64,000 bases of DNA from the IMG/VR virus record IMGVR_UViG_3300005393_000388; one strand, written 5' to 3'. Origin of the DNA: a virus. Every line of letters starts with the position of its first letter. The stretch's first letter is position 1. Positions 57,121 through 57,212 of the stretch are shown here, piece after piece. Under the pieces are notes generated by a model. The model ran no database searches. It saw nothing but the letters and a program-made list of their open reading frames with translations, and was not told the origin of the DNA. Position numbers and translations under genes: made by a program.

Positions 57121-57210
57121 GTCGATATGTTCCCGCGAACCGTAAAATCATCGATATGTTCTCGCATACCGCGAAAGTTCCAAAAAACGATTGACCTGTT
57201 CCCAAGAACG
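57121..57210 (+). repeat. Three divergent copies of the rlmD attB left arm
   Basis: 57121-57142 VDMFPRT, 57150-57173 IDMFSHTA, 57190-57210 IDLFPRT; not in a common frame. Confidence 0.75.
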
Positions 57211-57212
57211 CT

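Follow-up and report, generated by a model that had tools for sequence, protein, structure and literature searches.

Why should one end of a prophage carry, stacked in front of its attachment site, three copies of half of the site into which it has integrated? In the window, that is, the whole stretch of 64,000 nucleotides of viral DNA analysed here, the stop codon of a chrA gene (57115-57117) is followed, starting 3 nt beyond it, by three segments of the plus strand that translate into VDMFPRT (57121-57141), IDMFSHTA (57150-57173) and IDLFPRT (57190-57210) and that resemble part of rlmD, an rRNA methylase gene. These segments are present as described in the original prediction, made from the letters alone, which saw in them either half-sites taken up from one past host after another, as a chronological record, or extra binding sites or decoys under selection. 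Its linkers of 7 and 16 nt measure 8 and 16 nt, and its statement that the segments are out of frame with each other holds for unit 2, which is shifted, and fails for units 1 and 3, which share a frame. As DNA the segments belong to a family of direct repeats of about 26 nt with start-to-start distances of 29 and 40 nt: a distal unit 1 (57121-57147), a middle unit 2 (57150-57176) and a proximal unit 3 (57190-57212), all on the plus strand and delimited by sequence, repeat family and a weight matrix. Each unit is close to a complete attB-type left half-site, T.GAYATGTTYCC....AC, short of only a few bases next to the crossover; what is copied is the left (B) half of the attachment site in rlmD. 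Counted from the crossover, the G of GATATG in unit 1 (57124) lies at -113 and the corresponding G of units 2 (57153) and 3 (57193) at -84 and -44. An A-rich linker with an A6 tract (57180-57189, plus strand), which is conserved in relatives, immediately precedes the proximal unit, and a gap of 2 nt separates unit 3, its translated segment ending at 57210, from the 24-nt P arm at 57213-57236. All units are confined to this one arm of the site.

The element that ends in this array is a tailed prophage sitting in the 3' end of rlmD and consisting, at this side, of a lysin gene (44074-44814), a SHOCT gene, recombinase genes and cargo. Its recombination module (44956-48785, plus strand), recognised by Pfam and by gene order in relatives, encodes a SHOCT protein (44956-45171), large serine recombinase 1 (LSR1, 45177-46793), a small protein whose sole domain is the 'Recombinase' DNA-binding domain (46798-47214) and large serine recombinase 2 (47211-48785), all on the plus strand and all assigned by Pfam, with the Resolvase catalytic, Recombinase and zinc-ribbon domains present in both large proteins. 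This gene order is the same in most of the 80 related loci that extend far enough upstream. The best phage matches are Heliusvirales gut phage records and the Javan and phi-Ssu_rum streptococcal rum prophages, and both the module and the phage backbone are shared with the phi-m46.1 group and Heliusvirales-like prophages. Downstream of recombinase 2 follow TetR, a P-type ATPase, PadR, two ABC transporters and ChrA as cargo. Between the ATPase and PadR blocks lies a relic of a recombinase-2 3' end (51535-51840), 74-77% identical to the gene end of loci L009-L019; with a recombinase relic inside it, the cargo is assembled in layers.

Where does the attachment site proper lie? The 50-bp site at 57213-57262 is bounded by a perfect inverted repeat of its outer 10 nt (P arm versus 57253-57262) centred on a CA dinucleotide. 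Its left part is the P half-site core of attR (57213-57236, plus strand), which begins GACATCAATA, is supported by the inverted repeat, by contig breaks and by homologous cores, and has counterparts in Javan191, L016, L018, L020 and others. Array and arm are common to the window and L009 and L011, and the sequences part right after ...GGGCCA; the array-bearing elements in a spirochaete and an Acholeplasmataceae genome, whose recombinases are related, differ both from the window and from each other just past ...GGGCCA. Metagenome contigs identical to 57237-57600 carry other DNA left of 57237, and another contig with a related array diverges after 57238. Because relatives and metagenome contigs diverge there, the crossover is assigned to the CA at 57237-57238 (plus strand), the exact centre of the 50-bp symmetry. 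The B' arm that follows (57239-57278, plus strand) is recognised by its identity to the rlmD end as an orphan rlmD 3' end, which together with the CA reads HVETCVLMSRVKE plus stop; translated, 57237-57278 gives HVE...stop, a typical RlmD/RumA C-terminus. Against G001, the nearest genome compared, the DNA of the B' arm shows 74% identity to the end of rlmD and the sequence downstream of it, and the arm is also found in 28 intact rlmD genes. The contigs identical to 57237-57600 come from an anaerobic-digester and a soil metagenome, and one of them reads an intact rlmD end (..EEFPGAK|HVE..) and may represent the host locus free of this prophage.

The opposite junction is described here from a complete Anaerocolumna relative and not from the prophage of the window. 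In its attL the host B arm is joined to the phage P' arm, whereby the RlmD C-terminus is restored. Since the P' arm restores the rlmD end, attP consists of 24 + 2 + 24 nt with symmetric ends, and the units lie outside of it. The attL and attR of this relative have only CATGTGGA in common. The core attP is thus simple: it is about 50 bp long, its half-sites are inverted around a crossover of 2 nt, and the junctions show no extended direct repeat. Integration takes place in the 3' end of rlmD, and the phage arm makes the gene end complete again. A search for units on the P' side found none.

Do the units resemble rlmD arms more closely than chance would allow? A weight matrix built from the B arms of 28 distinct intact rlmD sites in the fetched loci was scanned over both strands of the 64-kb window, and its five top matches were unit 1 (27.9 bits), a copy at 44926 (22.2 bits), unit 3 (20.6 bits), unit 2 (19.7 bits) and an inverted copy at 57375 (17.2 bits). 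In 30 shuffles the best score was 16.4 bits and the mean 12.5 bits, so that the idea that the units match rlmD no better than shuffled sequence can be set aside. True rlmD B arms score 7.5-34 bits, comparable to the units. Moreover, the units share 17-20 of 25 positions with the closest intact B arm, whereas random 25-mers share 9.5 on average and at most 16. With a matrix of the B' arm, neither the P core nor the 30-nt iterons stood above shuffles; the iterons as B'-type half-sites are therefore unproven and not claimed. The region 56900-57700 gave no match to Rfam, did not fold stably as RNA (z 0.42) and was not enriched in promoter-like sites, and the deposited phage records contained no match to 57100-57300.

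The comparison with relatives, drawn from 160 fetched loci with recombinase 2 homologues, shows units on the P side of about 41 related element ends (P arm plus rlmD 3' end or another flank), with three units in about 14 of them, two in about 24 and a single one in 3-4. The streptococcal prophage Javan191 has one unit next to a homologous P core, and phi-m46.1 has none. As the number of units varies and phi-m46.1 does without them, they are not essential for the whole family. Where arrays can be aligned as orthologues, they are conserved as a block: among six distinct orthologous arrays the mean pairwise identity is 81% for the units, 74% for the P core and 68% for the linkers, and outside the block it drops to 38% in the upstream cargo and 33% in the DNA past the crossover. 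Similarity begins exactly at unit 1, the upstream cargo being unrelated, and cargo insertions never fall within the block of array and core. The A-tract linker is almost invariant in the six arrays, and AAAAA at -12 to -8 is conserved ahead of 39 distinct proximal units. A logo drawn from 83 distinct units hardly varies at the positions that are informative in the 28 coding B arms, although, as the units were collected by a matrix threshold, conservation in the logo is inflated, a bias of which the alignment of orthologues is free. The AC at positions 16-17, part of a threonine codon in rlmD, is kept in the units, which are non-coding and vary in frame.

Whose copies are these units? Every unit of the window is closest to its positional counterpart in other elements and not to any rlmD arm, as exemplified by unit 3, which is identical in 23 of 25 positions to the proximal unit of L009-L011. 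The recombinase genes of elements that share the array are about 77-89% identical at the DNA level, and the architecture is still kept where protein identity has fallen to 59%. Orthologous arrays of three units, unchanged in linkers and spacing, are found in elements of spirochaete, Acholeplasmataceae and several clostridial genomes, and past the crossover the DNA differs. For a chronological record of past hosts, the original prediction had expected a varying copy number, which is found (0-3), and units that each match rlmD of a distinct taxon best, which is not found, the positional orthologues being closer; the record itself is contradicted by the same arrays in unrelated hosts, by these orthologues and by a local duplication in L016.

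That duplication is part of a wider pattern in the positions of the units. The architecture of the window (-113, -84, -44) recurs in L009-L011, L018 and L101, and in L012, L015, L017 and L108 an array of the window type is displaced outward by an insertion of 21-22 nt. In L016 the units lie at -124, -84 and -44, and a perfect tandem duplication of 40 bp (about 18390-18470) takes in units 1 and 2 together with the linker, from which it follows that arrays can grow by local duplication. In the 13 architectures the proximal unit is found at -44/45, at -54 to -56 or at -63 to -66, and the units tend to be spaced by about 30, 40 or 50 nt. When all unit positions are taken together, their periodogram peaks at 10.1 nt with R 0.68, a value that was reached by 0 of 5000 random sets, a P value that is optimistic and has to be read as an upper bound on significance because the architectures share ancestry. 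Several of the 10-nt changes in position fall within different core families. The units thus keep a fixed helical register relative to the crossover, in classes 10 nt apart, albeit in lineages that are related.

Taken as a whole, the units are best read as part of the phage's own attachment site, being neither host DNA nor scars of insertion. More specifically, we consider it probable, at roughly 60%, that they are helically phased accessory recombinase-binding sites in the attP arm of rlmD-targeting phages that encode two large serine recombinases. The proposal of selected extra binding sites is in this way strengthened by the comparative data, namely positions quantised in steps of 10 nt, units conserved at least as well as the P core and block-wise conservation that sets in at unit 1; binding itself stays putative. 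It could be imagined that each unit is bound in the manner of attB by a recombinase subunit, which might be large recombinase 1, large recombinase 2 or the small domain-only protein, and that the extra subunits would share one face of the P arm, which would be bent, and could reach those sitting at the crossover. Such an array, comparable to the accessory sites in the res site of a resolvase or to the arm sites of lambda attP, would stabilise the synapse or gate it. Probably it would also contribute to directionality; contact with the coiled-coil of the P-bound subunit, for example, might unlock attR for excision. Which protein binds, and whether the array acts in synapsis, in direction or through titration alone, is here a matter of inference. 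As to their origin, the proximal unit is probably an ancient copy of an rlmD arm that was absorbed into attP, and the distal units may have arisen from it via tandem duplication. Only tentatively do we go as far as to propose a composite attP in which a phased array of attB type loads extra recombinase subunits or the domain-only paralogue and thereby exerts control in cis over synapsis and direction.

The units could also be bound and yet serve a regulatory or competitive purpose, as operators, as decoys that titrate recombinase or as secondary landing pads for relatives. In the decoy variant, titration would set the level of free recombinase or block re-integration and superinfecting relatives. 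Operator use is what a further half-site copy points to, the one at 44926 (44923-44955, plus strand, 22.2 bits), which is conserved in relatives, lies 30 nt ahead of the SHOCT ATG on the 5' UTR and ribosome-binding site of the SHOCT-recombinase operon and is a candidate operator. L016, L017 and L018 have this copy in identical form between flanks that have diverged, a copy is found at the equivalent place in lineages with only about 50% identity in LSR1, and in another lineage a half-site copy lies at -18 of LSR1. Such leader copies suggest that the same protein-DNA contact may also be used for autoregulation, a half-site on the ribosome-binding site of the recombinase operon lending itself to this. 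Rivalry between relatives is real as well, with two related prophages side by side in the window. However, decoy or titration sites would need no fixed helical phase to the crossover, and as landing pads the units are without a partner half-site at the right distance, nor do the contigs show a junction at a unit. Overall, a purely regulatory or competitive function of the array appears unlikely.

Accretion was also considered for the copy in the SHOCT leader, which would then mark the join of a phage to a separate element with recombinases and cargo; this was rejected, since lysin, site and SHOCT are contiguous and conserved in many relatives. Within the same leader CCCTCGGAAAGAGG could fold and hide the ribosome-binding site.

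Could the array be a neutral by-product, in which one attB-like stretch next to attP was duplicated by slippage and copies without a role persist because the region is short and recently duplicated? A copy number ranging from 0 to 3 and the recent tandem duplication in L016 would fit this view, and canonical large serine recombinases need no accessory sites. The arrays are, however, old, orthologous units persisting at about 77-89% DNA identity of the recombinase genes and the architecture to 59% protein identity; the units are conserved above linkers and core, agree in their informative positions with true half-sites, change their spacers in steps of 10 nt and sit in a block free of cargo insertions. 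Purely neutral duplication is hard to square with such conservation and phasing, and we regard it as quite unlikely.

Least probable by far, and largely refuted, is that the units are functionless B arms captured from successive earlier hosts by integrations or tandem accretion, for even though stacked rlmD 3' remnants exist on the B' side (two each in L044, near 15650-15790, and in the phi-m46.1 record L179, at 1904 and 2020), tandem accretion at rum is documented (PMC13651849), the proximal unit of L012 and L015 is B-arm-like all the way to the crossover and the cargo with its recombinase relic at 51535-51840 was layered by accretion, the copies do not come each from a different host or junction with a content that varies with history: elements of unrelated hosts have all three units in common, linkers and spacing included, the closest match of every unit is its positional orthologue, L016 carries its perfect 40-bp tandem duplication, the positions are quantised by 10 nt with units better conserved than linkers and core, the units are unlike the B arms joined to this right-hand flank in metagenomes, and we could construct no exchange of attP with attB or of attL with attR that would place a B arm left of P.

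To the right of the rlmD remnant the window contains a second, related prophage (phage C; 57281-57578 and 57579-64000) in opposite orientation and with the same module. It is inserted about 45 nt downstream of the rlmD stop, in or near the terminator, and host-like DNA ends near 57322. Its two recombinases carry all three Pfam domains and are 48-60% identical to those of the first phage, and its end holds four 19-nt repeats (57397-57514) spaced 30, 30 and 39 nt apart as well as a single half-site copy on the minus strand (57357-57376, 17.2 bits), which recurs in the same arrangement in relatives. Ends of this type lie about 95 nt downstream of an intact, convergent rlmD in about 15 other loci, and the arrangement of two prophages is also found in L146 and in a contig from wastewater. 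That rlmD had been struck twice in opposed orientations was considered as an explanation of the inverted copy at 57375; this was rejected, as the copy belongs to the second lineage, which inserts downstream of intact rlmD. As two related phage lineages use adjacent sites, the head-to-head layout comes about without a breach of orientation rules.

How does this site compare with known systems? In its geometry it follows the canonical large serine recombinase sites (A118, Bxb1, phiC31, SPbeta), with an attP of 24 + 2 + 24 nt and symmetric outer motifs, a shorter attB half-site, whose outer motif is 3 nt nearer to the centre, and a non-palindromic central dinucleotide. For characterised members of this enzyme family simple sites of 40-50 bp suffice and no accessory sites are needed (PMC3783163; PMC3556126); one recombinase acts there on minimal sites, whereas the window combines two large recombinases, a domain-only paralogue and a repeat array. 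Closest in biology are the rum/rlmD prophages (phi-m46.1, phi-Ssu_rum, Javan and gut 'Heliusvirales'), which have the same module of lysin, SHOCT, recombinase and small and second recombinase and the same target, the 3' end of rum/rlmD. The rum prophages are known to integrate at the rum 3' end with a published 18-bp core, GCATCACGTGGAGTGTGT (PMC4288039), which overlaps the CA-CGT-GAG crossover region of the window, and for S. suis members two phage integrases binding the att sites were reported (PMC13651849). Published work on these prophages gives the short core alone and mentions no adjoining repeats. As compared to phi-m46.1, the phage of the window has three units instead of none, and its cargo lies between the recombinases and the array.

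Resemblances to more distant systems are instructive too. The res sites of Tn3/gamma-delta and Sin combine, like the site of the window, a crossover with accessory sites on one side, over about 115-140 bp and with helically constrained spacing, and in site II of Sin the half-sites are in direct repeat. They differ in that the window has large serine recombinases, single half-sites instead of dimer sites, putative binding, and integration and excision instead of resolution. The attP arm sites of lambda-like tyrosine integrases are likewise repeated extra sites flanking the core, and those of lambda build a bent complex and set direction; however, lambda uses another enzyme family and its arm sites are unlike the core and read by a separate domain, whereas the units of the window copy the attB half-site and occupy one arm. 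In composite SCCmec islands, too, the region at the 3' end of an rRNA methylase gene contains a recombinase target more than once. Those SCC copies bound whole elements kilobases apart and are true accretion junctions, in contrast to the copies of the window, which follow each other at 29-40 nt within a single element and are passed on together with it. Literature searches by topic, through papers on rum phages and serine integrases and with literal motifs found no description of such arrays, in agreement with the original prediction, which knew of none. What is seen here is a known phage group and a known enzyme family with a composite attP not described in that literature and apparently under selection.

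If the proposed function is true, this would be the first accessory-site, res-like architecture among large serine recombinases and an attP that contains copies of attB. Large serine recombinases are prized for genome engineering and are thought to need no more than two short sites plus one protein factor for reversal. The array would offer a second route to the control of direction or efficiency, through DNA architecture, and a mechanistic link to the resolvase relatives. As a practical matter, the T.GAYATGTTYCC....AC units together with the core mark where these prophages, which are very common in the gut and in the environment, end on the right along with their cargo. With the array as part of the attachment site, cargo accumulates between the recombinase genes and the array and never inside the array, and the cargo regions that are delimited in this way hold resistance genes in streptococci and metal and chromate transporters in the window.

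Three further observations concern the wider family. In L017 (about 17950-18060) the P core with its CA is followed by an rlmD B arm in reverse complement, a junction not expected of ordinary integration that may reflect an inversion between opposed sites or a mis-assembly of the MAG. Furthermore, the elements of L009-L011, L012-L014 and L019, from spirochaete, Acholeplasmataceae and Brevinema assemblies, have a truncated recombinase 1 and neither SHOCT nor lysin, carry the full three-unit array and lie outside rlmD; possibly they are mobilisable derivatives with a wide host range. Finally, the last 27 or so nt of rlmD past the crossover (CAYGTNGAGACGGTAGTATTGATGTCA) are near-identical in the 28 intact genes (loci L001 and L029-L088), the identity extending to synonymous sites and across very distant Bacillota and Acholeplasmataceae, for which repeated replacement of the gene end by phage P' arms is one possible cause.
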